Of a stretch of 64,000 bases of DNA, positions 23,380-44,149 are shown in pieces; the first letter of the stretch is position 1, and every line of letters starts with the position of its first letter. A program made the position numbers and the translations under genes. Origin of the DNA: Escherichia coli (GTDB lineage Bacteria; Pseudomonadota; Gammaproteobacteria; Enterobacterales; Enterobacteriaceae); the NCBI RefSeq assembly GCF_022846255.1, contig NZ_AP025682.1. One strand, given 5' to 3'. The notes under the pieces are model-generated. The model ran no database searches. It was not told the origin of the DNA and was given only the letters and a program-made list of their open reading frames with translations.

Positions 23380-24095
23380 TTAAAGTCTTAATTGTCGATG
23401 ATGAACCGTTAGCACGGGAGAACCTGCGCGTATTTTTGCAGGAGCAGAGCGATATTGAAATCGTTGGAGAGTGTTCAAACGCCGTAGAAGGGATCGGCGC
23501 GGTGCATAAACTGCGCCCGGATGTGCTGTTTCTCGATATCCAGATGCCGCGCATCAGTGGTCTGGAAATGGTGGGGATGCTCGACCCGGAACATCGCCCG
23601 TATATTGTTTTTCTCACCGCGTTTGACGAATACGCCATTAAAGCCTTTGAAGAACATGCCTTTGATTATCTGCTGAAGCCAATTGATGAAGCGCGACTGG
23701 AGAAAACGCTGGCGCGATTGCGTCAGGAGCGCAGCAAGCAGGATGTTTCGCTGTTACCGGAAAATCAACAGGCGCTGAAATTTATCCCTTGTACGGGGCA
23801 TAGTCGGATTTATTTGCTGCAAATGAAAGATGTGGCATTTGTCAGCAGTCGGATGAGCGGTGTCTACGTGACCAGTCACGAAGGGAAAGAGGGCTTTACC
23901 GAACTGACATTACGTACCCTGGAAAGTCGTACACCACTACTGCGCTGCCATCGTCAGTATCTGGTTAACCTCGCGCATTTACAGGAGATCCGTCTGGAAG
24001 ATAACGGCCAGGCCGAGTTGATTTTGCGTAATGGCTTAACCGTGCCGGTCAGCCGCCGTTATCTGAAAAGCTTAAAAGAGGCGATTGGCCTGTAA
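23376..24095 (+). CDS. btsR: LytTR-family response regulator BtsR (YehT), 239 aa
   Basis: ORF track 23361..24095; start at [16 protein letters not shown] (receiver domain); ATGA overlap with btsS stop. Confidence 0.9.
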
Positions 24096-24141
24096 AAGAC
24101 TGCTAAAATGGCTTTTTGCCTCATCAACACCTGAAGGCCTC

Positions 24142-24612
24142 ATGCTAAGTAACGATATTCTGCGCAGCGTGCGCTACATTTTGAAAGCCAATAATAATGA
24201 CCTGGTGCGTATTCTGGCGCTGGGTAATGTCGAAGCCACCGCGGAACAGATCGCCGTCTGGCTACGTAAAGAAGACGAAGAGGGTTTTCAGCGTTGTCCG
24301 GACATTGTTTTGTCTTCATTCCTCAATGGCCTGATTTATGAAAAACGCGGCAAGGATGAGTCTGCTCCGGCACTGGAGCCGGAACGTCGCATTAATAACA
24401 ACATCGTGCTGAAAAAATTACGCATCGCGTTTTCGCTTAAAACCGATGACATTCTGGCAATCCTCACCGAACAGCAGTTCCGCGTTTCGATGCCGGAAAT
24501 TACGGCGATGATGCGTGCACCGGATCATAAAAACTTCCGCGAATGCGGCGATCAATTTTTACGGTATTTTCTGCGTGGACTGGCAGCGCGCCAGCATGTG
24601 AAGAAAAGCTAA
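24142..24612 (+). CDS. yehS: DUF1456-family protein YehS (156 aa)
   Basis: ORF track 24085..24612; start at MLSNDILRSVRY (24142). Confidence 0.85.
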   Translation: MLSNDILRSVRYILKANNNDLVRILALGNVEATAEQIAVWLRKEDEEGFQRCPDIVLSSFLNGLIYEKRGKDESAPALEPERRINNNIVLKKLRIAFSLKTDDILAILTEQQFRVSMPEITAMMRAPDHKNFRECGDQFLRYFLRGLAARQHVKKS

Positions 24613-24621
24613 GACGGGTAT

Positions 24622-24646
24622 GGCGGCCATGCGAAACATGGCCGCC
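24622..24646. terminator. Hairpin shared by convergent yehS and yehR (putative bidirectional terminator)
   Basis: Perfect 10-bp stem ggcggccatg / catggccgcc with 5-nt loop cgaaa, lying between the two stop codons. Confidence 0.5.
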
Positions 24647-24652
24647 GACAGA

Positions 24653-25114
24653 TTATTTCACTTCTTTAAAACCAGCGGCTTTCATCACCAGTTCCATTTG
24701 CGCCATAGTGATACCTTTTTTGGCATCTTCAGCAGAAACGTTGATTCCTGAAATACCCTGCAGGGCTTTAAAATCCACTTTTTCCATATCAATAGTCACG
24801 TTTTCCTGCGCGTAGGTATCGGTATAGGTTAATTTTTCTTCAACACCTGCGATGTTTTTGTATTTGGCGCTTAACGGCTCAAGTGTCCTGGCGGCATCTT
24901 CTTTGGTGGTTGCACCAATGGAGGCAAATTGAATTTTGGTTTCAGAAGATTGCTTAAGCACCTTGTCACCTTTGTAGACATAGGTAATGGCAATTTCAGT
25001 GCCGTTCAGATTGGCGCTGAATTTCTTTGATTCTTCTTTGTCACCGCAGCCAGCAAGAGAGAAAACCAGAACAGATGCAACAACAAGGGAAAACAGCTTA
25101 TTGAAAGCCTTCAT
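24653..25114 (-). CDS. yehR: Lipoprotein YehR (DUF1307), 153 aa
   Basis: ORF track 24653..25126; start at MKAFNKLFSLVVASVLVFSLAGC (lipobox). Confidence 0.85.
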   Translation of the reverse strand: MKAFNKLFSLVVASVLVFSLAGCGDKEESKKFSANLNGTEIAITYVYKGDKVLKQSSETKIQFASIGATTKEDAARTLEPLSAKYKNIAGVEEKLTYTDTYAQENVTIDMEKVDFKALQGISGINVSAEDAKKGITMAQMELVMKAAGFKEVK

Positions 25115-25238
25115 GTAAAACTCCATTTTATTTAATCAAGGAACTGGTGACTCTCACCAGGGGCTATATAGGATATGCCTAATACTGTGGCGTGAGCAGT
25201 CCGGAACAGGAGTAGAACTCTTAATAAAAAGCACTATT

Positions 25239-27242
25239 TCATCCTTGTTGCTGAAGCATGGGGAATAATTGTTCGCAAAGCAAAACACCGTTATTCATTG
25301 CTTCTACCCGTGCCTCGCTTTCTGTATTACGAAATTGTCCCAACACATGTGCCAGCCGATAAAAACCCACCGCGGTGAGGTCATTCGCCAGCAACTCTGC
25401 CTGACCAATAGCACTCTGTTCCTGATAGCGCCAGCCGTTATGGAGCAGTTGAATAAGTAACGCCTGGCAGCGCATCAGCAACTGATGAGCGGTAGACGGC
25501 ACAGGCAGAACGCTGGCAGAAGGTAGCGGTGCCACAGGCGCAGTTTCTGCGTCCAGCGCCCAGGCGCGGGTTTTTGTCATCATCACCCGTGGTTCCAGTG
25601 TTAATTGCCCCTCTACAAAACTGACAAAGCCAGAAACCAGGCTCACGGGGTCGTCTGTTTGTTGCAAAAGCGCCGCCATGCGTTCAACGGCAAAAGGAGA
25701 ACAGGCAGATGCCGGAAGGGATAACGTCAGCACATTATCTTCCCCTTCGCCGCTGATTACCTGCGCATCCAGTGTCTGGCGGCTGCTATCCCAACCGAGC
25801 GAAATACACTCCGCTACCGGCAGAATAAATAAGTTATCGACCTGGTTGAGTGGTCGTATGCAGGCGGGGGGACGCTGGCGTAAATATTCCCGCAAAGCCA
25901 CAATGCCCGGCTGGCGCAACGGCGCGCTCAACATTAGCCAGGCGTCTGGCGACAGTGGAACAACGCCACTCAAGCGGTTACGGGTCGCGAACAGCAGCTC
26001 GCAATCGGCACTGCGTTTTGCAGCTTGTGAAACAATTTGCCCACCTGCCAGTGCGCCAGCCTGAAAACTAAACAGCCGACGCGTCGCTGCCGGTGAGTTT
26101 TCCTGTTCGCTTCTCTGCCAACTACGCGAAAGATGCAAAATACTTCCTGTGTCGGGATCGGTAAACCAGATGCGTAAACCATACTGCTCAATATCCTGCC
26201 AGCAACGCATACCTAAAGACACCAGCCGCAGATGATCAAGTTTTGCTTCTCCGGCAATACCAGCGCCAACGACCGTGCGCCACGGCATGGGAGGAACTTC
26301 ACCGATACTGTCGCGTCGCGCCATCTCTTGTACGCAATTTAATCGACTGTTTAATGCCGCAAGCTGACGTAAGCATTCTCCGGCATGGTAGTGGCTGGCA
26401 CGGGCGTGGAAGGCATCAACACTGGCGCGCAATTGCCGTAGCGATTCACTCACCCATCGCCAGTTGCAGCGTTCCGCCGCTTGCTGCGCGCGACTGAAAG
26501 CGGCCTCGTAATGGATTGGCGGTTGACTTATCCCGCCCAGCCATAATGCCTGGCTTAATTGCTGAACATATTGACGACACGTTTTGCCTTCTTCGCTGGC
26601 AAACGGATCATCAGATGATGTGGCGTGTTCACTGCGCATCTGCCAGATTAAATGAGTAAATTCCGCTTGCTGAGTTTTGGCCTCGACGAAGGCCTGCACA
26701 GCCAGTACGACATGTTCGCAAAGTGTGCCTTCAATGCAATCACAGCGTGCGAAGCGAATGCTGCTGCGGGAATAAAAACGCACATCGCTCATCGGTAATC
26801 GGGCAGAGGGAATTTCGCCAGGCGCACAGAACAACTCAATGGTGATGCCTTTAGCGACCAGCGCCTGCGCGCGTTTGCGGGTGGCATCGGGCAAGGTAGC
26901 CAGTTCTTTCAGCCAGATTGCCGGATCCCACTCTTCTTCTTTTTTTTCCGTAGGCTGGGCGGTGGCACAAAGTCGTTGATAACTTAACACCAGCATCACG
27001 CGATGACGGCACATGCCGCTGGCCCCGCAGGTGCACTGAGCCTCTTTCAGTGCCTGACTGTTCGCCAGCTGTGTACGGACACCGTCACTGAAAGTGGCGA
27101 TTAAAGCGCCGTTCTCATGGCTGATCTCCGGGACGTTGCCATTTTCCAGTTCCTTAAGGCTGCGCTTAACAAAACCGGCATTGCTTAACGCCGTCAGTGC
27201 CTGTGGTGTCAGTTCTAATAATTCCGGACGTAGTGAATTCAT
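25239..27242 (-). CDS. yehQ: SWIM-zinc-finger protein YehQ (last gene of yehLMPQ)
   Basis: ORF track 25239..27266; start placed at Met overlapping the yehP stop (ATGA); two CxCx5CxH SWIM motifs (CTCGASGMCRH, CDCIEGTLCEH). Exact start uncertain. Confidence 0.8.
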   Translation of the reverse strand: MNSLRPELLELTPQALTALSNAGFVKRSLKELENGNVPEISHENGALIATFSDGVRTQLANSQALKEAQCTCGASGMCRHRVMLVLSYQRLCATAQPTEKKEEEWDPAIWLKELATLPDATRKRAQALVAKGITIELFCAPGEIPSARLPMSDVRFYSRSSIRFARCDCIEGTLCEHVVLAVQAFVEAKTQQAEFTHLIWQMRSEHATSSDDPFASEEGKTCRQYVQQLSQALWLGGISQPPIHYEAAFSRAQQAAERCNWRWVSESLRQLRASVDAFHARASHYHAGECLRQLAALNSRLNCVQEMARRDSIGEVPPMPWRTVVGAGIAGEAKLDHLRLVSLGMRCWQDIEQYGLRIWFTDPDTGSILHLSRSWQRSEQENSPAATRRLFSFQAGALAGGQIVSQAAKRSADCELLFATRNRLSGVVPLSPDAWLMLSAPLRQPGIVALREYLRQRPPACIRPLNQVDNLFILPVAECISLGWDSSRQTLDAQVISGEGEDNVLTLSLPASACSPFAVERMAALLQQTDDPVSLVSGFVSFVEGQLTLEPRVMMTKTRAWALDAETAPVAPLPSASVLPVPSTAHQLLMRCQALLIQLLHNGWRYQEQSAIGQAELLANDLTAVGFYRLAHVLGQFRNTESEARVEAMNNGVLLCEQLFPMLQQQG

Positions 27243-28375
27243 GACTGAAGATTCTCCGCAAGCCATGATGCCAGCTCGCCCGGTGTCATGGCGGCTATTT
27301 GTGCGCCGACATTTACCAGCGCCTGGGCCGTATCGTGGTCATAGCAAGGTGTTGCGCTGCTATCGAGCGCCGCCAGTCCCAGCACTTTGATGCCGCTCTG
27401 GACACACTTTTTCACCTGATGCGTCAGCAATGATGATGACCCACCTTCATAAAAATCGCTCACGAGAATAATGACACTTTTTGCAGGTTGTTCAATAAGT
27501 TGCCGACCATACTCCACGGCACTGGCGATATTGGTCCCGCCGCCCAGTTGTACTTTCATTAATAACTCTACCGGATCGGCAACGTCTGCCGTGAGATCAA
27601 CCACGCTGGTGTCAAAAGCGACCAGATGGGTACGAATGCCGGGTAACTGCCATAAACAGGCCGCCATCACTGCGGAGTGGATCACCGAATCAACCATCGA
27701 TCCGCTTTGATCAACCAGTAGGACCAGTTGCCATTGTTCGCTATGGCGTTTAATGCGGCTGTTAAAGCGGGGGGATTCGATATACAACTTGCCGTGTTGC
27801 GGGTGCCAGTGTTGCAGGTTGGCGCGCAGAGTACTTTTGAAATCAAAGTTTCGCGCCAGTGAAATAAATGAGCGGCGACGGCGATCGCGTACTCCAGAAA
27901 AAGCCTGACGAACTTCCTTTGCCAGTCGCGCCATAATCTCTTCAACAACCTGGTGCACTATCCGGCGGGCGGCAGCCAGTACTTCGGGATTCATCAGATG
28001 TTTGGCGTGCAAAACGGCGCGTAGCAGGCTTTCAGAAGGCTGCATACGTTCCAGCACGTCGAGATTCGTCACCACATCTTCAATGCCGTAGCGCAGCACG
28101 GCATCGCTTTCCAGCCGCTCGATCACCCGTTGCGGAAACAGCGTGTGAATGCTGTTGATCCACTCAGGGGTGGTGAGATTTGAACGACCTAATCCACCGT
28201 AACGTTCACCACGCTGGAGCCGTTCAGGATCGCGCCCATACAGCCACTCCAGCGCGTGGTCTATCTGCCGGGCGTTGTCATCCAGCCCACAAAGCGTCGT
28301 TTCTGCCGCTTCGCCAAGAATTAATCGCCAGCGTTGTAGCTCACGGGTGGTCAGAAGATCGTTCAGTTCAGACAT
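27239..28375 (-). CDS. yehP: von Willebrand factor A (VWA) domain protein YehP (378 aa)
   Basis: ORF track 27239..28603; start at MSELNDLLTTRELQRW; MIDAS DxSxS motif (LVDQSGSM). Confidence 0.88.
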   Translation of the reverse strand: MSELNDLLTTRELQRWRLILGEAAETTLCGLDDNARQIDHALEWLYGRDPERLQRGERYGGLGRSNLTTPEWINSIHTLFPQRVIERLESDAVLRYGIEDVVTNLDVLERMQPSESLLRAVLHAKHLMNPEVLAAARRIVHQVVEEIMARLAKEVRQAFSGVRDRRRRSFISLARNFDFKSTLRANLQHWHPQHGKLYIESPRFNSRIKRHSEQWQLVLLVDQSGSMVDSVIHSAVMAACLWQLPGIRTHLVAFDTSVVDLTADVADPVELLMKVQLGGGTNIASAVEYGRQLIEQPAKSVIILVSDFYEGGSSSLLTHQVKKCVQSGIKVLGLAALDSSATPCYDHDTAQALVNVGAQIAAMTPGELASWLAENLQS

Positions 28376-30646
28376 GGAAAACTCCCCAGTGTTGCAGCGA
28401 TGCCAGTGCCTGCTGTTCGAGTTGTTGATGATGTGCAATGTCTTGTGGTGGACAATGCAACGGCATTTGCAGTGCCGAAACGGGAAGTTGCACCAGTTGA
28501 TAATGCTCAAGCACCTGATGTGCCAGCGTCCCGCGTTCTCGTGGTGGTAGCCAGGCCATCGCCGCGCGTAAATCGGGCAGGGCATTGATAAAATCGGCAT
28601 CACTCAGTTGATTTAAATGACTGCTGAAACCGGCGATAAATACCGGCTGACAGGCCAGTTGATGACGGGCTAATGCCAGCAAACCGTGCAGCGCCTCGCC
28701 GGATTGTGCCGGGGATAACTGCGCCAGCATCGTCAGCGCCGTTTCGGCACTGGCGTTGGGATGTTCCAGACGCATCAGTGCGCCAAGAGTCGCGCCGCGA
28801 TCCAGCGCCGGGGCATGAATCGCCTGACTGCGGCGCTCCAGTAAGGCTACTGCCGCAGAAAGCGAAACGCCGGGTAAATTAACGCCGCTATGTAGATCGC
28901 GCAGGATATGGCAAAGCGCCTGCCAGCTATGCAGGTGAGTGTGAAACTCCTTTTCATCCGGTCTGCCGTTGGATTCACATAGCCAGAGTGTGCGATCGAT
29001 AGCCGCGCATAACGTCGTCTGTAATATCTGCGCGCCTTGCATACCGCTAATTTCATCCAGCCGCCATAAGGCATATAGCACTTCCAGCGCCTGGCCCATT
29101 TCGGCGAATTGATTTTCCTGGGCGATTAATAATGTGAGTTGCTCCAGTAATTGTTGACTGAAGGACGCCAGACCCGCTAACGCCGCCTGGCTAAGACATG
29201 TGGTGATACTGCCGATTCCACCCGCGTCCAGCATATCGGCTTCTAATTTATTGCGTGCGGCTTCCTGGAGTGTGGCACCAAAGCAGGCGGCCTCAATTAA
29301 TGCCGCATGTTGCTAAGCGGGCGGGTTAATTTCCAGCGTTCTTCACCGTTGCCTGCAAGTGTCAGTGTGCTTCCCTGCTGGCGTACAATCCCTGGGATCT
29401 CCAGTATTGCCAGCCGATGTAACACCTGACTTTGCGCTAGTCCATTGGGGGTAAAGCGATTTAAGGTAAGCTCCGCCGGAAGAGAGATTGCGGTACGTTC
29501 CAGTTCGCAGGTGACATCTTTTGGCAGAGGCGGTTGTGGCGTAGAAGGGGCAAGTTTACCGAATCCGTCACCCGCTAATGTGTCTATCAACGTTAGCAGA
29601 ATCGGATCGGTATCGGGATGAATAACGCCGCGATAGCTCCACGGCAACGGCGCATTCAGGGCTTCTTTAATCAGCGATCCTGCTATGGCATCCAGCCAGT
29701 CAGTGCGTAACGGTAGTGTATGACCGCGCAACTGTGCCAGTGCCATCGCATGCAGATGAGCGGCAGCCATATCCGCGGTCGAAGCAGGCAACTTGTGCTG
29801 GCGCAAACGGGTGAGAACCGTTTTTAGCAATTGTTCTCCCGTCTGCTGTAAGCCCCACTGCCAGCACCAGTTTTGCCAGACCGGGGCAGGCATTCCTGAA
29901 AGGTATCCTGCCAGCACATCAAGGCGCTTTTCACTGTAGGGGGTGAGATAACAACCTGTAACGGCATCTGCCAGCGACGGCAATTCTGGCGTGTTAATTA
30001 CCTGCGGACATTCGCGCCACATTTTTGCCAGTGCCGGAGCGTGCCAGCCACCGCAGACAACTAACACGTCGCCATTATTTTGCTGCATCGCCCATGTAAT
30101 CCAGCGGGCCATAAAGGCTTCGCGCTGACGATTGAGAGCATCTCCGGGGGAGTCGCCCCGCAGTTGGGCAAAATAGTGCGCCAGTGCAGAGGGTAATGCA
30201 GTTTGCTGGCTTTCATCTTCGAACAAGTGATCCCACAGGGTGTCGCTGTTATCCATGCGGGTGGCACGCAGCAGCAAGGTCTGGCTTTCCTCTTGCGTAT
30301 CAGGCGAATCGTCCTCTTCTTCACTCTGCGCCCAGCAAGGCAAATCGATGAAGTAAGTTTGTGCCTGAATACGACGAGCGGCTTGTAGCGCCTGCCACTC
30401 CGGCGAAAATTCAGCATATGGCGTCCAGGCACCACGCCCGGGGGCTGCACCGTCCTGATACTGGCAATAACTGTAAATAGCTACCGGAAGCTGGTGGGCT
30501 AAAAACAGTTCGTCTACCCGGTCATTAAAATCAGCCGGGCCTTCAATCAACACGTATCGTGGCCGCTGGCTTTCGATTAACGATTTCACCAGCCGGGCGC
30601 AGGCCGGACTATGATGCCGGATGCCGACAATTAACGGCTCGCTCAT
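28368..30646 (-). pseudogene. yehM: yehM, split into two overlapping reading frames by an apparent 1-nt frameshift near 29300-29312
   Basis: N-terminal frame (ORF track 29297..30814, yehM start MSEPLIVGIRHHSPA at 30646) ends at a stop at 29297-29299; C-terminal frame (ORF track 28368..29234) is open upstream to about 29312. Span is 2279 nt, one short of the 2280 expected for the 759-aa protein. Confidence 0.7.
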
Positions 30647-30656
30647 GCATCTTTCC

Positions 30657-31745
30657 TCACGGCAGGCGGTGGCGGGCTTGATAATAAGCCTGCCAGTGAG
30701 CTTCTTTATGTGTGGCGACTCGCTGTTCGAAGTAACGGCGCAGACGAGCGCGATCTTCTTCGTTATCTTTGACGATGGTTCCGGCAATACAGTCCACCAG
30801 ATCGGCTGGCTCACCTGCGCGATTCGCTAAAAACCAGGCGCGGACGCCCACTGCGTGGGCCACGTTCACGGCTTCAGCGGTGGACATAATTGCCGTCAGG
30901 GTATCCATTGACGTTTTCTTTTCGCCGTTGGCACGCAGATCGCGGAAGGTGCGGACCAGTAACTCCAGTACCGCGTCAGGCACTTTATGCGGAATACCGC
31001 TATGGGCCAGCAAACGCGCCGAAGCACTGGCGACCAGTTCCAGCTCCTGGGCGAAATCCATAATCGGAAAGACGGTTTCAAAATCGAAGCGACGCTTTAG
31101 CGCGGCACTCATCTCATTGACGCCGCGATCGCGTGTATTGGCAGTGGCAATAATATTAAAGCCTTCCCGCGCATAGAGCTGACTGGCTTCACCGGTGAGT
31201 TCCGGCACCGTCATCACCCTGTCAGAAAGCATACCTAACAGACAGTCTTGTACTTCCAGCGGTGTACGCGTTATCTCTTCAAAACGGACGATTTTGCCGT
31301 CGCGCATTCCCTGGTAAAGCGGGGCAGGGACCAGTGCTTCCGTTGACGGACCATGGTTGATAAGCAGGGCGTAGTTCCAGCCGTACTTGATTTGATCTTC
31401 GGTGGTAGATGCGCCGCCCTGGATGGTTAACCCGGCATCGCCGCTAATAGCGGTTGCCAGTAATTCAGACAGGAGAGATTTTGCGGTGCCAGGTTCCCCC
31501 ACCAACATCAAACCGCGCCCGGTGGCAAGAGTGACTAACATACGTTCGACAGCGGAGGGACTAATCACCACTTTACGGCTAATATTTTGCGCGCTATCGC
31601 CAAGGATAAAAGCACGGGCCGCAGGCAAACTTAACTGCCAACCGGGCGGGCAAGGTGCGTGATCATTTTGTTTTAATTTTGCCAGTTCATCGGCGTATAA
31701 CACAGCGGCAGGCGGACGCTGCAGATGATTATTCTGCGGTGACAT
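30657..31745 (-). CDS. yehL: MoxR-type AAA+ ATPase YehL (362 aa)
   Basis: ORF track 30657..31811; start at MSPQNNHLQRPP (31745); Walker A GEPGTAKS; MoxR-like architecture. Confidence 0.88.
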   Translation of the reverse strand: MSPQNNHLQRPPAAVLYADELAKLKQNDHAPCPPGWQLSLPAARAFILGDSAQNISRKVVISPSAVERMLVTLATGRGLMLVGEPGTAKSLLSELLATAISGDAGLTIQGGASTTEDQIKYGWNYALLINHGPSTEALVPAPLYQGMRDGKIVRFEEITRTPLEVQDCLLGMLSDRVMTVPELTGEASQLYAREGFNIIATANTRDRGVNEMSAALKRRFDFETVFPIMDFAQELELVASASARLLAHSGIPHKVPDAVLELLVRTFRDLRANGEKKTSMDTLTAIMSTAEAVNVAHAVGVRAWFLANRAGEPADLVDCIAGTIVKDNEEDRARLRRYFEQRVATHKEAHWQAYYQARHRLP

Positions 31746-31854
31746 ATATTCATCCCTGAAATGTATTAATGAAATAAACGATATTTTACGCGCAATAAAT
31801 GTTTGCCGCATTAGTTGTTTGAGCGAAAAATATCTGGAAAGCAGATCACAGTAA

Positions 31855-31939
31855 ATAAAAAAACCTGCTGGTGAGGCAGGTTCTTTTATTTACTATTTTC
31901 AGGCCTAACACCACAGCCTGTGCAACATCGTGTTCCAAC
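31855..31939 (-). ncRNA. Candidate antitoxin small RNA (OrzO-like), about 85 nt
   Basis: Minus-strand sigma70-like promoter (-35 TTGCAA at 31969-31974, 17-nt spacer, -10 TATAAT as complement of 31946-31951); intrinsic terminator (7-bp stem 31862-31868/31876-31882 followed by a U-run on the minus strand); 5' segment complementary to 32086-32105 of the toxin 5' UTR. Confidence 0.5.
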
Positions 31940-31945
31940 GAACGA

Positions 31946-31996
31946 ATTATAACCACGGCTGGACCCCGTTGCAATTAAGATAATGAGATTTATAAT
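31946..31996. promoter_or_regulatory. Divergent back-to-back promoters sharing one palindromic -35 hexamer (TTGCAA)
   Basis: Plus strand: TTGCAA (31969-31974), 16-nt spacer, TATAAT (31991-31996), predicted TSS about 32001-32004. Minus strand: the same TTGCAA read in reverse, 17-nt spacer, TATAAT (complement of 31946-31951). Confidence 0.5.
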
Positions 31997-32177
31997 CCAG
32001 ACCGTTGGGACGTTGCGCCGGATCGAACCTATTTCAAGTCCTGGCTACCGGACGGGTGGTGCTGCAGGTGGTGCCCTGATCCGGAGTGCAACATCGTGGT
32101 CCAACATACGTAAACCAGTATCGACAGGCAGTGTAAGGGTAAGGTGCTGGTGTTGCGCTCCTTAATAAGGAGAGCGG

Positions 32178-32267
32178 ATGGACACGCTGACACAAAAGTT
32201 AACCGTGCTCATTGCTGTACTGGAGCTATTAGTGGCTCTGTTACGGTTGATTGATTTGTTGAAGTAA
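32178..32267 (+). CDS. zorO: 29-aa hydrophobic type I toxin candidate (ZorO-like / TisB-like)
   Basis: ATG at 32178 preceded by SD TAAGGAGA (32166-32173); product MDTLTQKLTVLIAVLELLVALLRLIDLLK is a single amphipathic/hydrophobic helix with a basic C-terminus; predicted 5' UTR of about 174 nt; own terminator follows. Gene name assigned from memory of the Zor-Orz family, not verified. Confidence 0.6.
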   Translation: MDTLTQKLTVLIAVLELLVALLRLIDLLK

Positions 32268-32290
32268 CGGGCAAATTGAAACGCATCTAA

Positions 32291-32319
32291 GGGGGAATAC
32301 CGTTTCCCCCTTTAATAAA
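32291..32319 (+). terminator. Intrinsic terminator of the small toxin gene
   Basis: ggggga-ataccgtt-tccccc hairpin followed by tttaataaa. Confidence 0.6.
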
Positions 32320-32507
32320 GCTATACTCGCCATACTTCAAGTTGCATATGCTGCGACTTGAAGTATGATGAGTATATTATTCTATTTCTTGGTTGAATAT
32401 ATTCTGTAGTTCACAATTAAAAATTGCTATTACAGTTTCATGTGATTCACCTCGTAATTTCCGCTCATCAATAAACTCATCTCTTGTATAAATCAACGCA
32501 TCATTTA

Positions 32508-32693
32508 TTAGTGGTCGGCATCTTCTCGATCACGTTGATGAAATGTTGGATGTAGCCGGAATCGTTCCAGTCGATAGACGGAACCTGTAAATAATTCAGA
32601 GAATTTATGGATCTCAAGTCTGAAGGAAAACGGATCTTCAGGAGCAGGAACCTCATAATCGTAAATAGCAACCAGCTCTTTTTGCACGATCAT
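32508..32693 (-). CDS. Hypothetical small protein (61 aa); possibly a remnant or variant of the yehK-position gene
   Basis: ORF track 32508..32693; a 15-codon ATG-initiated frame immediately downstream of the yehI stop runs into it out of frame; no recognisable domain. Confidence 0.3.
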   Translation of the reverse strand: MIVQKELVAIYDYEVPAPEDPFSFRLEIHKFSELFTGSVYRLERFRLHPTFHQRDREDADH

Positions 32694-32753
32694 CGCTTTT
32701 CCCGGTGGTAGGTCGTGTTGATAACGGGCAGTTGCATCACTGCCCGCTGTGTT

Positions 32754-35700
32754 TTAATGGAAAATAACGTCGGGTGCGCTTAACGCTTCACTCAAATCAA
32801 ACACATCAAGTTCGGCAAAAGTGACGGATTTATTGTCACGGTAAACCCGAAGAGAACGGAAGCTCATTAGCGCTTTGCTATCAACATTGTAGTGGTTAAA
32901 GCCGGGTGAAAACTTAAGGACCAGCCGGTACGCACCTAAGTCATAGACAAATGCGTCCTCATAGCCTGACTCCCAGCCTTTGTATCGCATTCCCATAAGT
33001 TGACCAACGGTAGCGGATTTACCTTCCCAGCGAGTCAGGCTGTTACTGGCTGACTCGTCAGGTGTGAGCAGCACCGTGCGCCGCGCCAACTGGCGAAAAG
33101 GCGGCATAATTTCGTAATCGGCAAAAAGCTGTGCAAATTCACTGCGCATTTCTGCTGCCATTTCTAACGGGTGGGCAATGCCAATCAGAGCATCTGCAGG
33201 CAGGTCAATGGACTCATCTTGTGCATTGCAGAACTCCCCCTCTGCGGCCACACGAAAGGCGTTGAGTAAACGACGCGGTTCATTTGCCGGATAAACCCCC
33301 CATATTAATCGCTGGGTAACCAGGCGGGTAAAGGGATGATTAACAAACAGAGAATGAAAATCTGCCAGCGACCAGCGTCGGGTGGTGCGCAGGGCAGTTT
33401 CAAGACGCGGGAGCAGGTTTTTGCTCACCTGAGAGGCATCTTTTTTTAGCCCTTTTAGTCGGGCCAGTGCCTCGGGGGCTTTCAGTTGATCGTCATCGGC
33501 GCGCAACCGGGGAACGCTTTTCTGGCGAACGTTTTGTTGATCGTAGATAACCGGGTTGAGGTTTTCATCGAAGCGAACGGTAAATTGCCGTGGACCAAAA
33601 TCAAAAATCAACGCCTGCGGATCATCAAGACCCAGTGTTGGGACTAATCTGTCCGCTAACTCTTCCTGGCTTAGCCCGCGATTTTCTGCGACCACCTGAA
33701 GAAATTCCGCCGCGTTATCACGTAAGGAGCGGGATTTCGCCCGTTGGGATATATGGTGCAGCTGTATCAGCGCCATATCATTATTCATCAGGGTAAGGAT
33801 GTTCAGGCCACTGACAGCACGGGCAGATTTGCCTTCTTGTGGCCAGGCGAGGATCTGTGTCGTCAGATCCCGAGCCGTGCTTTCGTCACCAAAGAGACTT
33901 AACGCCAGAAATGCCCAGTTGTCTTTTGCGGGGGCTCCAGCTTGTTGCCATGCGGTGAAAAGATCCCAGGCAAAAGCTGCCAGCGTTTGCGGCTGGCAAA
34001 ACGTTTTCAGCTGTTCCAGTCCGCCATAAAAACGTCCGCCCTGGGTAAAGCGCAGCATTTCGCCGATAATTTCCAGAGCGTCATCGGTAACAGGCTGATT
34101 ATTCTTGATAAGGCGCGGCCTGGACCACATTGCCGGATGCCAGAAATCAGGAGCTTTTGGAATACGTGCCGGGTAAATTTCTATTGGACCCAGTTTAAGT
34201 AATTGCTCCAGGGCAGGCCATACATCTGTACGCTGCCAGCGGTTTGCCACGGTTTGCAGTAATTCGCCATGCCCTTGTTCATACAGTAAACGCAGGGCAA
34301 GTAATGCAGCTTCGCTATTATCGCTGGGTTTTGTAAAGACAAGAGGGATAAGTGCAGTAGCCGTATGTTCCGGCCATTGTAAAATCCACTGGCGAGCCAG
34401 ATCACGCTGCGCCGCGAAACGTCGCCAGACGCGGGCAACGGGCAGGGCCAGTTCTGTTGCGCCGAAATTTAAAATTAACGGAAATGTTTCTTTTGGATGA
34501 TGTGAAAAAGCCAATAACAGGCCAGGTAATGTATCCAACCCGAGGATACTGAGAAAATAGTCCTCACCCGCGAACAGATGCTTTTTCTCATTGATACGCA
34601 GCCAGAAAGTCAAAGCCATCTCACGCGGCAACTGTGCCAATAAATACAGGTTCCAGACACTCTTTTCCGGACGATAACGTGAGTAGCTATCATTTTCCCA
34701 GGTGTTAATTAACGCTTCAACGTCGCCGGAACGAAGCGCCTGTTCGGCTGATTTTGCTTCCGTGGAGTGCCAGCCATTGTTGATTTCCTCTACTCTGCGC
34801 GGGGAGTAATGCCACTGACCCACTAATGATTTGCGCGCCGCATCCAGTTTGCCGGGCAGTATATAATTCCGGAACAGCCATACATCATCCCCAAAACCTA
34901 GCTCCTGTAGTACAACTCGACCACTTTTTCGTTCCATGCGTTCCGTAAAAGATCCCGTGCTGAAATAACGGGCAGACTCTGTGGCGGCAAGTCTCTCTCG
35001 TTCGCCTGGTTGCCAGCGGGCTTTGGGCGCTAATTCAAGAGGCACTAAATCAAGGCGCAGCAATGCCGTTTTTTTCTTACCTCGCCACGGTGGAGAAACA
35101 AGTATTTCTGGCAGGTCGTTGCTATGAGTACTCTCGAAAGCAAGTTTTGGCGATGCCGATAAATAACCATTCACCACTGCCTGGGCTTGTGTACTTAAGC
35201 ACGGCATCACCTCTTCTGCCAGTTGTGGCTGCGATGCCATCAGCGTTTGTAACAGCGTATGCCAGTATTCATCACGTGCTTTTTGCTGTGCAGGCAGCTT
35301 TTTGTCTTCGATGATGGGATAACCAGGGCGCGCAGGGGGGGCTTTTAACGCCAGCAGTTCTGCCAGTGCGGCGAGCGTCGCATGGGGGAAGTTTTTACTG
35401 TATTTAGCCACACGTTGCAGGCTGGGTTTGTTTTTATCAGCCACCAGTAGCAAGGTGCGGATGACTTGCGGATGGTTAATTTGTACCAGCAGACTGCCGC
35501 AATCTTCTTTATGTGCATACATCGAGAGGCGCGGAACGGCTGCCAGTCCTTGTTCGCGCAAAAGGGCAGCGCAGGCCGCGTAGCCGAAGTGGTTTTCATG
35601 CGACATGTAGCTGGCTTCTCGATCGCTAAATATATCCTGGCTCCAGTAACGTGCGAGTTCTTTCACCGCCTTAGGGTCATCAGCAACAACTTTTAACCAC

Positions 35701-36386
35701 TCTTTTGAGCGAAAATGAGTTTGCGAACATTCAAGGCTTACCAGCTCGTTGGCGATTTCGGGTTTTTCCGGGAGGTTCAGAGCAATAAAAGGGCGGCGAA
35801 CTTTGGTTATTCCTGGCAGTGCGGCAATGAGTTTGTCGGCGCAACGCTGCCAGCAGGTTTCCTCTGCCAGAGAGAGATGCTTACGTAATCGGAGATCGAA
35901 TTCGTTATAGGTTTCTGAGCGATAACCATAGCCATAGTCCTCGTTCTGATACTGCAATGTTACTACCAGAGGATCACTCTCATAACACCGTACAATAAAC
36001 TGGCGTGCAATCACCACCTCAGTTGCATATTCCAGCCCCTCTTGTTGGACGATTTCGTCGAGCAACTGTTGGCTATCATTTTGCGCGATACAGGCTAGCG
36101 CCGCCATTGTCCGGGCCGTGATTGAGGGTTTGTGTTCGCCGATCAAGTTGATGGCCTGCGTGATGGCGGACTGCCACTCCAGTGAAAAGTTTTCATAACG
36201 CCAGACAATGTTTTTTTTCTTCTCTGCTTTTTGTAGCAATTCATCACCCAGTGTCTGAATGATGCTTTCAGTGATAACAGGCACCGGTTCGCCTGGCCAA
36301 TTGCGATGGCTGAGTGGTGTTTTGCCTTTTTTATATTTAAGTTCCAGTTGGGCGTTATCCGCCAGCCACGGTAATTCCTTGTCCAT
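32754..36386 (-). CDS. yehI: Large uncharacterised protein YehI (1210 aa), paralog of MolR
   Basis: ORF track 32754..36386; shares multiple sequence blocks with the adjacent MolR ORF (for example FxLRLRKHLSLAEE and LPEKPEIA). Confidence 0.85.
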   Translation of the reverse strand: MDKELPWLADNAQLELKYKKGKTPLSHRNWPGEPVPVITESIIQTLGDELLQKAEKKKNIVWRYENFSLEWQSAITQAINLIGEHKPSITARTMAALACIAQNDSQQLLDEIVQQEGLEYATEVVIARQFIVRCYESDPLVVTLQYQNEDYGYGYRSETYNEFDLRLRKHLSLAEETCWQRCADKLIAALPGITKVRRPFIALNLPEKPEIANELVSLECSQTHFRSKEWLKVVADDPKAVKELARYWSQDIFSDREASYMSHENHFGYAACAALLREQGLAAVPRLSMYAHKEDCGSLLVQINHPQVIRTLLLVADKNKPSLQRVAKYSKNFPHATLAALAELLALKAPPARPGYPIIEDKKLPAQQKARDEYWHTLLQTLMASQPQLAEEVMPCLSTQAQAVVNGYLSASPKLAFESTHSNDLPEILVSPPWRGKKKTALLRLDLVPLELAPKARWQPGERERLAATESARYFSTGSFTERMERKSGRVVLQELGFGDDVWLFRNYILPGKLDAARKSLVGQWHYSPRRVEEINNGWHSTEAKSAEQALRSGDVEALINTWENDSYSRYRPEKSVWNLYLLAQLPREMALTFWLRINEKKHLFAGEDYFLSILGLDTLPGLLLAFSHHPKETFPLILNFGATELALPVARVWRRFAAQRDLARQWILQWPEHTATALIPLVFTKPSDNSEAALLALRLLYEQGHGELLQTVANRWQRTDVWPALEQLLKLGPIEIYPARIPKAPDFWHPAMWSRPRLIKNNQPVTDDALEIIGEMLRFTQGGRFYGGLEQLKTFCQPQTLAAFAWDLFTAWQQAGAPAKDNWAFLALSLFGDESTARDLTTQILAWPQEGKSARAVSGLNILTLMNNDMALIQLHHISQRAKSRSLRDNAAEFLQVVAENRGLSQEELADRLVPTLGLDDPQALIFDFGPRQFTVRFDENLNPVIYDQQNVRQKSVPRLRADDDQLKAPEALARLKGLKKDASQVSKNLLPRLETALRTTRRWSLADFHSLFVNHPFTRLVTQRLIWGVYPANEPRRLLNAFRVAAEGEFCNAQDESIDLPADALIGIAHPLEMAAEMRSEFAQLFADYEIMPPFRQLARRTVLLTPDESASNSLTRWEGKSATVGQLMGMRYKGWESGYEDAFVYDLGAYRLVLKFSPGFNHYNVDSKALMSFRSLRVYRDNKSVTFAELDVFDLSEALSAPDVIFH

Positions 36387-36395
36387 GCTCTTTCC

Positions 36396-39300
36396 TTATT
36401 CAAACAGGGCTTCAATATCGTTAATTAGCTCGCTGGCGGTGATGGCATCGAGTACGGAGAACTGCGCTTCCTGTGTTGAATTACTCCCCCAGCCATAGCT
36501 TTCCGCTTTGCCTTCCCATAGCCACAGCTTGCTTAAGAGTTGCTCGGCACTCAGTTCGGCTGGCGACATGCCTACCGCAAAACCTTCATCGATTTCCATG
36601 ATTAACGACCAGCGGCCCAGGGGGTTGATCATCCAGCCGATCCAGCCAGCATCCTGCGGGGTGCCCTTTATCCAGCCTTTATTCGCCAGCCCCATTATCC
36701 GACCACTCGGGCATTTTCTGCCTGTCCAGCGTGTCAGTTCGCTGGCGTTGCGCTCGGCTTCTGTCAGCGCGTAACTGTTACGATCAAGCTGGCGGAACGG
36801 TGGTAACAGTTCGTAGTCGGCAAAAAGCTGCCCGAAGGCGGCAGCATCCGTCGGTGATATTTCCAGAACGTGAGGAATACCAATAGAGATATCGCCTTCC
36901 GGCAGGGTGAAAAGATCATCGTCAGCGGTGCTGTAGCTGTTATCTTCCGCTACGCGAAAGCAAGCCAGTAGCTGGTTTTCGGCGCTATAAACGCCCCAAA
37001 TCAGACGGCGGGTTAAGTGGCGGACCAGCGGATGCTCAACCAGGAAGAGCTGAAAGTTTTCCGGTGACCAGCGGCGACGCAGGCACATGGCGGATTCCAG
37101 CCTTGCTACCTGCTGGGCGGCGACGGTACGCGCATCTTTTTTCAGCAATTTGTAGCGGTTAACAGCATCGTTCGCCTGTGATTCATCATCGCTTTTGTTT
37201 GGTTTGGGCAGGTCTTTCAGACGACTGCCGGAAGCGTCACGCACAAACGGTTTTAAGGTTTCATCAAAGCTGACGGTGAACTGGCGTGGGCCGAAATCCA
37301 GCAACAACGAACCATTATCATCCAGACCGAGATCCGGTGCTAACCGATCTTCAAGCTCCGCCACCGTGAGTTCGCGGCTCTCGGCAATGTCGGCAATTTT
37401 TTCTTTTGCCCGCTCCTGTAATGCTTTGAATTTCAGTTTCTGGGCGATGCCGTTAAGCTGCATCAGGGCGATATCACTACCGATAGCAGCGAGAATATCC
37501 AACCCGACGGTGGCGCGTTTATGCTGGGATTCACCAGGCCAGGCGCGAATCAAAGGCGTCAGTTTGCGGGCGGTGTCATCGTTACCGAGAACGCCTAACG
37601 CAGTGAACGCCCAACTCTCTTTCGACGGCGCGCCAGCGGTCTGCCAGGCGGTAAACAGATCCCAGGCAAATTCAGCCAGTGAGTCGGCGGTACAGGCATC
37701 TTTCACCTGCAATAATCCCGGATACAGCGCCTCCTCCTGATGGAAGCGGAGCATTTCACCGAGGTGCTGGAGTGCGCTATCGGGCAGTGATTGGGCGTTT
37801 GCTTTTAATACCGGGCGGTTCCAGAGCGATGGCTGATAAAAGGCCGGAAGAGTGGGGATTTTTGTCGGGTGATTATCTAAGGGATCGAGCGCAAGCAGAG
37901 CGTTCACCGCGTCTGTTACTTCCGGCTGGTTATAACGCCGGGCGATTTCTTGCAGTAATGGCTGATGACCGTTTTCGGTAAGCATACGCAAGGCAGCGCG
38001 GGCGTTATCCTGGGCTTCACCGGCTTTGCCGAGCGCCGCAGGCAGCAGGCCGGTAATGGCGTGTTCCGGGTATTTCAGCAGCCAGATACGGGCATCTTGT
38101 CGTAGGGTTTTGAGTTTGTTGAAGGCGCGGGCGACGGCAGGTGCCAGCTCACTCGCTGCGAAGTAATTCGTTATGGGCAAGGCTTCCTGTGGATAGCGTG
38201 CAAGTGAGTTTACTAACCCAGGTAATCCTTTGAGTCCAAAATGTAACATGGCGTATTCGGTATCGGTATGCGGAGATAGAGTAAGGGCATTCCATGCTCT
38301 TACTGCTTTCTCCAGCGGCAATGTTGTCAAAATCCCCAAATGCCAATAATGCCCGGTAGGTGAATGAAACACCTTAAATTCACTTATTAAAGTTGAATAA
38401 TCTTCATTTAGCCATGCCTCAACTACCGCTTCGGGAGCTTTAATATATGTACCAGCGATCCGTCGTTGAAAACCCATCCTTGCCAACAGATTGGCAGTAC
38501 TTTCTTCATGACTAACCGTGATGTGTTTTGAATACCAGATATATTTCGCCAAAAGTTGATTACTGATTTCTTCTGTCAGATAACTGATTGGCTCAATACC
38601 TAATGGTGCTAAATCAAGCACTGGAATCGGCGATTTTTTCTTTTTCGAAAGCCATGGTGGGGAGACTACTATGACCGGCAGTAGATCGGCGCTGGCATGG
38701 TTTGAGGGCTGTGTCAGTTGTTGCTGGCATGATTTCAGCACTGCAACTGCGGGTGTCGAAAGCCAGGGAATGACCTGTTCTGCTAGTGTCGGTTGCGAGA
38801 TAAGCATCGTCATTAGCATAATGCGCCAACTATTCTCTTCTTTTTGCACTAGAAGTTCCGCCAGTGCTGCCAGTGCTGCGTGTGGGAACGCAGCGCAGGC
38901 TTTCGTCATTCGATCGTGACAGCGTTTAGTATGCCCGGCTACACGTATAAGCAGTGTTAATGCGAATGGATGATTGATATGACGCAACACATCGGCGCAG
39001 TAGTCACTTGCGACATAGGGAGCAAATCGGGGCAGGGCCGCAACACCTTGCTCCTGTAATACGGTGGCTGACCATATCGCACCACAATAGTAATCATCAA
39101 AAATGGCATATGGCTCGTGATATTTTTCTAATGAGGCAAGAATGTGCTCATCAGTCGCCACTATTTTTAGCCACTCAAGCGAGGGTAATTTCTTTTGCCC
39201 CAGTAGACGCTGGGCAATTTCATGTGCAATTTCTGGTTTTTCGGGTAATAACAAAGCAATTAATGGTTGCCGCCATTCTGGAATATGTGGAACTGCGGCA

Positions 39301-40190
39301 ATAAGTTTTTGTGCACATTTTTGCCAGAGAGACTCTTCCGCCAGTGATAAATGTTTACGTAGGCGTAATTCAAAGCTGGAATATTGCTGCAAATAATCAG
39401 GTGAAATGCCAGACGACAGGAAAACAATATTATTGTTGACATAATCCCATTCAATAGATATTTGTTGAAGATGTATTATTACATCAGTAGCATATTCCAG
39501 ACCGCCTTCCTGAATAATCTGATCCATAACATCCTCACGCTCTTTATATCTCGTGCAGTGCAGTTCAAGTGCCGCGAGTACAGCCATTACCGGTGATGGT
39601 AATTTTGTCGTTTTCGGGCTGTTAATCAGATCGATCGCCTGAGCGATGAAGTTTTGCCACTCTAAAGTACAGGCGCTGAAGTCAAATGTAGCTGTTTTGT
39701 TATCCCGTTGCGACACGCCACAGGCTAAGCGACGTAACTGGGTTAATTTATCTACAGGTGTAACAGGATCTCCGGGAAAGCGGCGATGGCTTAAGGTGGT
39801 GGGTACGACTTCAAGCGGAAAAACGACAGCAATATCTTTTGCCAGCCACGGTAAAATAACGTCTGTATTTTTGTCAGCCACGTAGATTTCTGGTGTAACT
39901 GAGGGCTGTTCCTGAATGATGGTAGAAAAGTCAGATAATTCGAGAGTTTTCGTTACCGTTCGAGTATGTTTCGATGTAGCATTCTCCGCTTGTTCCACAT
40001 ACCCCTTTTTCGTTTTCTCCGCAATCAGCTTGAGTTCCGCTTTTTCCGCCGCCGCAGCATCTGCAAAGCTTTTTACCTGACTTTGCCCGTTGGTGCCGAC
40101 TTTGCCCCAACTGATATTCAGTTCGTTTCCCTGCTGCTCCACCGCCCAGAATTTATGTGATTTTTCGTCCTGAAAGATAAAGTGTCTCAT
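36396..40190 (-). CDS. molR: MolR-like large protein with N-terminal WGR domain (1264 aa), apparently intact
   Basis: ORF track 36396..40190; N-terminus KFWAVEQQGNELNISWGKVGTNGQSQVKSF...KGYVE fits the WGR domain signature; single uninterrupted frame. Confidence 0.8.
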   Translation of the reverse strand: MRHFIFQDEKSHKFWAVEQQGNELNISWGKVGTNGQSQVKSFADAAAAEKAELKLIAEKTKKGYVEQAENATSKHTRTVTKTLELSDFSTIIQEQPSVTPEIYVADKNTDVILPWLAKDIAVVFPLEVVPTTLSHRRFPGDPVTPVDKLTQLRRLACGVSQRDNKTATFDFSACTLEWQNFIAQAIDLINSPKTTKLPSPVMAVLAALELHCTRYKEREDVMDQIIQEGGLEYATDVIIHLQQISIEWDYVNNNIVFLSSGISPDYLQQYSSFELRLRKHLSLAEESLWQKCAQKLIAAVPHIPEWRQPLIALLLPEKPEIAHEIAQRLLGQKKLPSLEWLKIVATDEHILASLEKYHEPYAIFDDYYCGAIWSATVLQEQGVAALPRFAPYVASDYCADVLRHINHPFALTLLIRVAGHTKRCHDRMTKACAAFPHAALAALAELLVQKEENSWRIMLMTMLISQPTLAEQVIPWLSTPAVAVLKSCQQQLTQPSNHASADLLPVIVVSPPWLSKKKKSPIPVLDLAPLGIEPISYLTEEISNQLLAKYIWYSKHITVSHEESTANLLARMGFQRRIAGTYIKAPEAVVEAWLNEDYSTLISEFKVFHSPTGHYWHLGILTTLPLEKAVRAWNALTLSPHTDTEYAMLHFGLKGLPGLVNSLARYPQEALPITNYFAASELAPAVARAFNKLKTLRQDARIWLLKYPEHAITGLLPAALGKAGEAQDNARAALRMLTENGHQPLLQEIARRYNQPEVTDAVNALLALDPLDNHPTKIPTLPAFYQPSLWNRPVLKANAQSLPDSALQHLGEMLRFHQEEALYPGLLQVKDACTADSLAEFAWDLFTAWQTAGAPSKESWAFTALGVLGNDDTARKLTPLIRAWPGESQHKRATVGLDILAAIGSDIALMQLNGIAQKLKFKALQERAKEKIADIAESRELTVAELEDRLAPDLGLDDNGSLLLDFGPRQFTVSFDETLKPFVRDASGSRLKDLPKPNKSDDESQANDAVNRYKLLKKDARTVAAQQVARLESAMCLRRRWSPENFQLFLVEHPLVRHLTRRLIWGVYSAENQLLACFRVAEDNSYSTADDDLFTLPEGDISIGIPHVLEISPTDAAAFGQLFADYELLPPFRQLDRNSYALTEAERNASELTRWTGRKCPSGRIMGLANKGWIKGTPQDAGWIGWMINPLGRWSLIMEIDEGFAVGMSPAELSAEQLLSKLWLWEGKAESYGWGSNSTQEAQFSVLDAITASELINDIEALFE

Positions 40191-40289
40191 TCTGCATCCC
40201 TGTAATTTTATCCAGTTGAATGCAGATGCTATCAGTATTTATGCGGGTTAGAGAGAGACAAAATCGCAAGAAAACAACTTTAGGAATTT

Positions 40290-40321
40290 ATAAAGAAAAG
40301 GCGCTGTCGATACAGCGCCTT
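40290..40321 (-). terminator. Putative metG terminator
   Basis: Hairpin aaggcgctg-tcgata-cagcgcctt just downstream of the metG stop on the minus strand, followed by a T-rich tract on that strand. Confidence 0.5.
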
Positions 40322-40330
40322 GAAAGGAGA

Positions 40331-42364: not shown

Positions 42365-42495
42365 AGTAGGCATTACTTCTTAATAGTGAAAAGGGGTTAG
42401 ATAGTACCAAATGGGAAAATGTTAAGTAAGTACTTCTCTATATTCTTCAGGTAAACTATCAACTGATGGTTTATCTATACAAAAAAGGAGTCGGG

Positions 42496-43605: not shown

Positions 43606-43635
43606 CGCGTATTAACCATTCTGGTTATTCTTCAT

Positions 43636-43676
43636 ACACCGCAGAGATGTTACATTGATGCGGTGTATTTGTTTTT
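43636..43676 (+). terminator. Intrinsic terminator after apbC
   Basis: Stem acaccgca/tgcggtgt followed by atttgttttt. Confidence 0.55.
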
Positions 43677-43867
43677 GCAACATTAATGAACACTTATTTA
43701 ATGCTGCGAATATTCTGCGGACCTTCGTCCGAAACTCTACAAAGTCGATTGATCGTACCGGCGATGCTTCATTATCATCCTTCGTGGCTGTGTAGTGGAT
43801 GTACAGCTATAGTTTGTTATGCACTCATTCTTTCCAGGCATAACCTTTACTACAGGGATAACGTTCA

Positions 43868-44149
43868 ATGAATAAGTACTGGCTGTCAGGAATTATTTTT
43901 CTTGCCTATGGATTGGCTTCTCCCGCGTTCTCTTCAGAAACTGCCACATTAACGATTAATGGTAGGATCAGTCCCCCGACATGCAGTATGGCTATGGTTA
44001 ATGGTCAACCTCAACAGCATTGTGGTCAGTTAACGTATAATGTTGATACCCGTCATCAGGTTTCTTCGCCAGTTAAAGGTGTAACGACGGAAGTGATTGC
44101 TGCAGATAGCGATAGCAAACGTCGAATCGTGTTAAATCGCTACGATTAA
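43868..44149 (+). CDS. yehE: Small secreted protein YehE (93 aa)
   Basis: ORF track 43868..44149; signal peptide; upstream of the yeh fimbrial genes. Confidence 0.8.
   Translation: MNKYWLSGIIFLAYGLASPAFSSETATLTINGRISPPTCSMAMVNGQPQQHCGQLTYNVDTRHQVSSPVKGVTTEVIAADSDSKRRIVLNRYD

Follow-up and report, generated by a model that had tools for sequence, protein, structure and literature searches.

A single-copy zor/orz toxin–antitoxin module with a P-type antitoxin RNA between yehL and yehI of Escherichia coli

The interval between yehL and yehI in the window analysed here – the whole 64-kb stretch of E. coli DNA – almost certainly holds a single intact zor/orz type I toxin–antitoxin module, which occupies positions 31857–32313 and is present in one copy. 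The system is already published and not new, and no feature of the sequence speaks against this identification. An initial annotation of the same DNA had proposed a type I toxin–antitoxin pair of the Zor–Orz kind, with a divergent sRNA that pairs in trans, and had allowed that it might be a known family rather than a novel one; both proposals are borne out, as the match to Rfam family RF02083, a peptide identical to ZorO, the position between yehL and yehI and the 174-nt leader all lead to zor/orz, characterised since 2010.

The family was found in that year in O157:H7 EDL933, where z3289 and z3290 lie with ~85-nt divergent sRNAs between yehI and yehL and where both Z3289 and Z3290 proved toxic (Fozo 2010). 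Its mechanism was dissected in 2014 and 2017, and over 2,000 genomes were surveyed in 2024, with the conserved promoter, RBS and ORF elements tabulated over 2,439 loci (Shore 2024; PMC11264685, Table 3). Given this history, the locus has little discovery value. The promoter hexamers, RBS and ORF length of the module are the conserved elements of that table.

In the window, the module is flanked by yehL (minus strand, 30657–31745) and yehI (minus strand, 32754–36386), in the order yehL (−), orz (−), zor (+), yehK pseudogene (−) and yehI (−), with the frameshifted yehK lying between zor and yehI. Both the yehI–yehL interval and an sRNA gene divergent from the toxin gene, which characterise the family, are thus found here. 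The right border is marked by a 55-bp palindrome at 32322–32376, outside the module, which is derived from the ends of ERIC/IRU elements. The feature tables of six RefSeq records list no annotation for the toxin ORF or for the sRNA, and the remaining feature tables compared have an identical gene order. A scan of NCBIfam with the 29-aa peptide returned no family, which means only that NCBIfam has no curated Zor model. With the genes unannotated and such a model lacking, a reader of the raw sequence may well rediscover the module as something new.

Anatomy of the two transcription units

A promoter scan of 31400–32800 found exactly two sites, back to back and each scoring 10/12 – the very two that the initial annotation had described. 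The plus-strand promoter is TTGCAA-16-TATAAT (31969–31996) and the minus-strand promoter TTGCAA-17-TATAAT (31974–31946). The -10 element of zor (TATAAT, 31991–31996, plus strand) emerged from both the scan and the comparison of modules, and that of orz (TATAAT, 31946–31951, minus strand) is invariant in 22/22 modules and agrees with Table 3 of PMC11264685. Their -35 element is one and the same: the palindrome TTGCAA at 31969–31974 reads alike on both strands, so the same six base pairs serve both divergent promoters. Across 22 modules, which cover four types of specificity and include three Escherichia species other than E. coli, this hexamer is TTGCAA in 21; spacer length never varies among the 22 (17 bp for orz, 16 bp for zor), even as the spacer sequences differ.

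On the minus strand, the orz gene – of the OrzP type – measures 83 nt between a putative transcription start site (TSS), the G at 31939, and the last base of the U-tract, 31857, close to the divergent promoter-to-terminator unit of ~85 nt that had been predicted. The Rfam model RF02083 (OrzO-P) matches 31857–31932 (−) over its full length (model positions 1–76 of 76), scoring 99.9 bits where the gathering threshold is 60, with an E-value of 9e-17, and this is its sole match in the 64-kb window. The first 20 nt of the RNA (+1..+20, 31920–31939, minus strand) form a seed that is complementary to the toxin leader and co-varies with its target. The gene ends in an intrinsic terminator (31850–31894), a 12-bp GC-rich stem at 31862–31882 followed by U7 on the minus strand. 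The terminator looks bidirectional, because its stem lies inside a palindrome with 19-nt arms that carries A/T runs on either side. Some weak Rfam matches (Thr/Trp leaders, a miRNA) at this terminator and at the ERIC-like palindrome were set aside as below threshold and due to hairpin shape only.

On the plus strand, a zor TSS placed by homology at 32004 gives a 5' UTR of 174 nt (32004–32177), the length originally estimated, and this start places the AAGGAG motif at +164..+169 and the ATG at +175, exactly the published coordinates (Wen 2017; PMC5397157). The first 28 nt of the leader (32004–32031) correspond to the segment processed off in the published system and, in the predicted fold, pair in cis with the 'exposed after processing' (EAP) region. 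This region was defined as +73..+102 by Wen 2017 (PMC5397157) – who demonstrated Delta-28 processing, EAP opening and the translational block for zorO – and, mapped from that paper and from PMC11264685, it corresponds to 32076–32105 here. Within it, at 32083–32088, lies a standby-like GGAGTG, a conserved motif required for full toxicity (Shore 2024; PMC11264685).

The minimum free energy (MFE) fold of the leader has +1..+22 paired with +73..+102 and the RBS predicted inside a small hairpin, CTCCTT-AAT-AAGGAG, which is consistent with a poorly translated primary transcript. Such structure predictions are given little weight, however, because the whole-leader fold is no more stable than shuffled sequence (z = -0.67) and because the predicted Delta-28 fold frees the RBS, contrary to published probing.

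The toxin ORF (32178–32267, plus strand) starts with ATG and encodes 29 aa plus a stop codon. Its RBS, AAGGAG at 32167–32172, ends 5 nt before the ATG and has the published sequence and position, so the hydrophobic 29-codon ORF with a Shine–Dalgarno sequence described at the outset stands as it was. The encoded peptide, MDTLTQKLTVLIAVLELLVALLRLIDLLK, agrees at every residue with the ZorO peptide that Otsuka et al. synthesised (PMC6669753, section 4.3), which settles the comparison with published toxins that the initial annotation had recommended. Its GRAVY is 1.4, rising to 2.6 for the core of residues 8–25, and its charged residues are D2, K7, E16, R23, D26 and K29. The further claim that the region has no other credible coding capacity is right in so far as a 60-aa ORF at 31983–32165, which begins before the TSS, lacks credibility, although other ORFs do exist. 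The toxin gene had also been credited with a terminator of its own. There is indeed a hairpin of 9 bp at 32289–32312 (−15.3 kcal/mol, z = -1.8), kept in all modules, but it is followed by UUU only and fails a consensus terminator scan, and is better called a weak intrinsic terminator.

Pairing and covariation of the sRNA and the leader

The complement of 31920–31939 pairs with 32086–32105 at 19 of 20 positions, with one A–G mismatch and continuous runs of 13 and 6 – precisely as first reported. Read from the sRNA 5' end, the pattern is 6(1)13, with sRNA +7 and position 32099 as the mismatched bases, and the target corresponds to leader positions +83..+102, 73–92 nt upstream of the zor ATG. Recurrence of this 20-mer with at most three mismatches is expected 0.01 times by chance in the window, and none of 100 shuffles gave two matches to it. 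According to the pairing rule of Wen 2014 and Shore 2024 (PMC11264685), a functional pair has at least 15 continuous or at least 17 discontinuous base pairs with one internal mismatch; the 19 pairs found here exceed the published minimum for the discontinuous class.

These figures come from direct base counting rather than from RNAduplex, the program recommended earlier, which was of partial use: run on the full sRNA and the full mRNA it returned a meaningless long duplex, and with the sRNA 5' end only it recovered the +83..+102 site but extended it implausibly.

Covariation was assessed in 22 modules from 15 loci, namely the window, 11 E. coli genomes, E. whittamii and two other Escherichia species. 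Four types of sRNA 5' end and three types of target occur among them, and cognate partners always pair at 19/20 positions, whereas non-cognate combinations reach 15–18, with longest runs of 7–9. The target lies at +83..+102 in every full module except two: the module L012:2147, with a 172-nt leader, has it at +82..+101, and the O-type copy of E. whittamii, with a 175-nt leader, at +84..+103. Since coordinated changes occur on both partners across these modules, there is good evidence, from sequence comparison, that the pairing is under selection. The single internal mismatch is itself kept at the same position in the P-type and in the third and fourth specificity types, a feature of which no discussion was found in the papers searched.

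Specificity type, distribution and alternative readings

Specificity within the family resides in the V1 triplet at sRNA positions +9..+11, which reads GAA in OrzO and ACG in OrzP (Wen 2014). With +1 at 31939, the V1 triplet of the window is ACG, that of zorP/orzP and not of zorO/orzO. Strain G5295 of O157:H7 carries the locus in tandem and, standing in for EDL933, allows the comparison to be extended along the module. Against its yehL-proximal copy (zorP/orzP) and its yehK-proximal copy (zorO/orzO), respectively, the window shows 0/83 and 17/83 differences in the orz gene (31857–31939), 2/64 and 16/64 in the promoter region (31940–32003), 1/174 and 14/174 in the leader (32004–32177) and 2/90 in each case in the ORF (32178–32267). 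Between the 3' end of orz and the stop codon of zor, overall identity is 98.8% (406/411) to the zorP/orzP copy and 88.1% to the zorO/orzO copy. The implied equation with zorO/orzO therefore survives for the peptide and fails for the sRNA, promoters and leader, which are of the zorP/orzP type by V1 and by identity.

The peptide has Thr at residue 3, as in ZorO, whereas the O157 P copy has Ser3 – the ZorP (T3S) variant of Shore 2024. Past the terminator, the 3' flank matches that of the O157 zorO copy at 76/80 positions and that of the zorP copy at 64/82, and so is like the sequence found downstream of the last copy in O157. Taken together, the ACG triplet, the identities, Thr3 and the last-copy flank identify the locus, by its sequence, as a single copy of the P specificity type with the commonest peptide variant; 25% of genomes have a single copy, and 72.5% of zor ORFs encode the ZorO peptide (Shore 2024; PMC11264685). 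A zorQ/orzQ assignment does not apply, as the peptide has Ala20 where the common variant of that subtype is A20S, and both seed and target differ from those of the third and fourth types (loci L005, L006 and L010). The ORF and flank are a mosaic, with 32184 and 32234 matching the O copy and 32216 and 32226 the P copy. An O/P recombinant of the tandem pair was considered and not adopted: no clean breakpoint can be seen, and several strains have single P-type copies with Thr3.

The module thus resembles zorP/orzP of EDL933 (z3290, sRNA-2) in its place beside yehL, its identical orz gene, its ACG triplet and a target with the same single A–G mismatch. It departs from that pair by Thr3 in place of Ser3, one silent change in the ORF, one change in the leader (+54) and two just upstream of the TSS, and, unlike in O157, it is not followed by a second, zorO/orzO copy, its flank being of the last-copy type. 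The dissected pair, zorO/orzO of EDL933 (z3289, sRNA-1), encodes an identical 29-aa peptide and has a matching architecture, with the same promoter hexamers and spacers, RBS, terminators, EAP position and leader length (174 nt), but it differs in its GAA triplet and in its 18 continuous pairs, one of them G–U, as well as by the overall divergence given above. Because seed and target belong to a different specificity type, cross-repression between the window's pair and zorO/orzO is not expected; a correct subtype name hence matters for predicting cross-talk between copies or for planning rescue in this strain.

Among 5,426 complete E. coli genomes, the leader and ORF are present in 3,399 (63%) and at least the orz part in 5,235 (96%); the difference between the two counts leaves about 34% with orz only, and about 3.5% have neither part. 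These counts agree with Shore 2024. K-12 falls into the orz-only class, and the MG1655 remnant has been published as OrzPmg (Shore 2024): at the same position it keeps an orz gene identical to that of the window, both promoters and ~30 nt at the start of the leader, and a deletion that reaches the right end of the ERIC-like element beside yehK has removed the remainder of the leader together with the target site, the ORF and the terminator. The statement that the system is absent from K-12 at this position thus holds for the toxin only, given what K-12 retains. Beyond E. coli, a scan with one 22-mer of the ORF found only three other species representatives, all Escherichia, in a search by exact match that would miss diverged relatives. 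In E. whittamii, P and O copies are already found in tandem, which indicates that the P/O duplication predates the split of those species.

Some other readings of the locus can be weighed against this picture. Chance alone – a spurious short ORF beside a fortuitous 20-nt repeat – can be dismissed: 42 ORFs of at least 20 aa overlap 31000–33200, and two promoter-like sites are no surprise where shuffles lead one to expect 2.4, yet the rarity of the repeat (0.01 expected), the Rfam E-value of 9e-17 and the conservation of the locus, with compensatory changes, in 3,399/5,426 genomes and three other Escherichia species leave it no room. It is also very improbable that the module is a decaying relic that has lost expression or toxicity, like the neighbouring yehK pseudogene. 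The frameshift in yehK, the deletion hot spot exemplified by the K-12 type and the empty RefSeq annotation in the six records' feature tables would fit decay, but every functional element of the module – promoter hexamers (both -10 elements and the -35), RBS, 29-codon ORF, seed, target and terminators – is intact and identical to the consensus, and the peptide does not differ from ZorO, whose toxicity has been shown by experiment. Equally improbable is that the locus is zorO/orzO proper rather than of the zorP/orzP type, a reading that takes its support from Thr3 in place of Ser3 and from the 3' flank (76/80 against 64/82). It has to contend with the differences from the P and O copies, respectively, in the sRNA (0 against 17), promoter (2 against 16) and leader (1 against 14), with a V1 triplet, ACG instead of GAA, that defines OrzP, with a P-type target to which an O-type sRNA would pair at only 16/20 positions with a longest run of 9, and with published experiments in which OrzP does not repress zorO.

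More substance attaches to the idea that the main job of the sRNA is something other than zor repression, be it the regulation of other mRNAs in trans or of the yehLMPQ operon downstream. About one-third of E. coli genomes keep an expressed orzP and its promoters with neither toxin nor target, and such orz-only genomes are hard to explain if Orz serves solely as an antitoxin; moreover, orz reads in the same direction as yehL and lies ~110 nt upstream of it. Even so, we consider this unlikely, as the sRNA 5' end co-varies with its cognate leader in every complete module, which reveals selection for their pairing, targets other than zor are not known and a strong terminator follows orz; at most, such a job would add to the antitoxin role without replacing it.

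A putative mode of action

For the zor/orz module as preferred here, a P-type toxin–antitoxin pair, the following sequence of events may be proposed. The plus-strand promoter (-35 at 31969–31974, -10 at 31991–31996) would give rise to an mRNA of ~310 nt starting at 32004, in which the first ~22 nt of the leader would pair with +73..+102 and the RBS would sit in a hairpin, leaving the primary transcript poorly translated. Loss of the first 28 nt would expose the EAP region – probably a ribosome standby or loading site – and this would allow translation of the 29-residue hydrophobic peptide, which may then enter the inner membrane and cause depolarisation and ATP depletion. The divergent minus-strand promoter would produce the 83-nt Orz sRNA, whose single-stranded 5' end would pair with +83..+102 and block the standby site, and the resulting duplex would be cut by RNase III, so that no toxin would be made.

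The sequence anatomy, family membership, complementarity and covariation that enter this scheme were observed in the present comparison. The processing step, the standby role, the dependence on RNase III and the toxicity at the membrane are taken from experiments on EDL933 zorO/orzO, for which growth arrest on toxin overproduction and rescue by OrzO, partly through RNase III, have been published, together with inner-membrane localisation, depolarisation, ATP depletion and hydroxyl radical production as effects of Zor; by homology, these properties would carry over to the P-type pair of the window. A search for a direct published test of zorP repression by OrzP found none, the published rescues that were found having used zorO/OrzO. 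The pairing rule and the covariation nonetheless suggest that OrzP represses zor in the P-type pair.

A similar logic is known from tisB/istR-1 and shoB/ohsC, in which the sRNA is likewise divergent and non-overlapping, ~20 nt of complementarity lie far upstream of a sequestered RBS, and the leader is activated by 5' processing and governed by a standby site; these systems nevertheless share no sequence homology with zor/orz and belong to other toxin families. The tisB gene is under SOS control. A LexA box, which would have suggested the same for zor/orz, was looked for in the promoter region and not found, in contrast to tisB.

The palindromic -35 hexamer common to both promoters, of which no discussion was found in the zor/orz papers searched, raises the further possibility, which we regard as doubtful but worth stating, that initiation of zor and of orz might exclude each other on any one copy of the DNA. 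If two RNA polymerases could indeed not occupy the -35 element together, transcriptional competition would be superimposed on the post-transcriptional control, and such competition might explain why the zor promoter stays intact in orz-only genomes.

Divergent promoters and their common −35 element

The promoters of the toxin gene zor (plus strand) and the antitoxin sRNA gene orz (minus strand) have one −35 element in common: the palindrome TTGCAA (31969-31974), whose same six base pairs are read on both strands. Spacer length is constant – 17 bp on the orz side and 16 bp on the zor side in 22/22 of the zor/orz modules compared – while spacer sequence varies, with nine different versions on the orz side and five on the zor side among these 22. 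This arrangement suggests that RNA polymerase binding at the two promoters may be mutually exclusive. We found no discussion of the common zor/orz −35 in the text of the searched papers.

Pairing between Orz and the zor leader

The pairing of Orz with its leader target is interrupted by a single unpaired position at sRNA +7 (window 32099/31926), which is kept in the window's own specificity type (P) as well as in the third and fourth types, with counterparts at three comparison loci (L005, L006 and L010). In the O type, pairing runs continuously through +7, and a G–U pair and an unpaired position are found near the other end instead. This conserved departure from full pairing might modulate repression or cleavage by RNase III.

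The 5′ end of the zor mRNA itself (32004-32025) resembles that of the Orz sRNA (31918-31939, minus strand), as can be seen by comparing GUUGGGACGUUGCGCC... with GUUGGAACACGAUGUUGCAC.... The same segment of the EAP – the region of the zor leader from +73 to +102 that holds the Orz target – can pair with either start, and therefore the 5′ end of the leader appears to be a cis mimic of the antitoxin.

Borders of the module and the K-12 deletion

On the left, orz and yehL point in the same direction, the end of orz lying about 110 nt upstream of the yehL start codon (31745-31857), and the palindrome of the orz terminator (31850-31894) is bordered on either side by A/T runs. Transcription that starts at the strong orz promoter could conceivably continue into yehLMPQ. 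On the right, the convergent genes zor and yehK are separated by a near-perfect palindrome with 25-nt arms (32322-32376; −32.3 kcal/mol, z = −10.4). This palindrome is a member of a dispersed repeat found at a median of five places per E. coli genome, and its arms match the terminal 34 nt of a full ERIC/IRU element at yajO–dxs; that element carries the ERIC2 primer site. The window copy is without the ERIC core. Beyond it, yehK (32377-32693, minus strand) is split into ORFs of 61 and 39 aa, in contrast to the 105-aa protein of O157 and K-12; RefSeq labels the gene frameshifted in the closest strain and several others.

K-12 (2558-2735 of its locus, corresponding to window 31857-32035) still has orz, the promoters of orz and zor, and roughly the first 30 nt of the zor leader. 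The deletion has fused this leader remnant, with nothing in between, to the right end of the ERIC-like element that adjoins yehK. MG1655 derivatives served as ‘zor-orz free’ hosts in earlier papers; the orphan OrzPmg of MG1655 was first reported in 2024 (Shore 2024).

Variant loci and the source genome

In the variant module of E. coli Ecol_743 (L012, from 2147 onward), the leader is 172 nt long, one base being missing at each of two sites, of which one is the loop of the hairpin next to the RBS (TTAAAAGGAG, not TTAATAAGGAG). The BLAST match at L012 exceeds the query by 70 nt, which suggests an insertion near this locus.

Among 5,426 complete E. coli genomes, the best match to the surrounding 20 kb (24000-44000) reaches only 97.4%, compared with 99.8% identity to strain FEX669 over the 601-bp zor/orz segment (31800-32400); because of this disparity, the source genome is apparently either not closely represented among these genomes or mosaic across 24000-44000. 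Elsewhere in the window, further above-threshold Rfam matches are a Peptidase-S11 RNA motif (11444-11524; 72.8 bits) and a TPP riboswitch (51232-51328; 71.2 bits).
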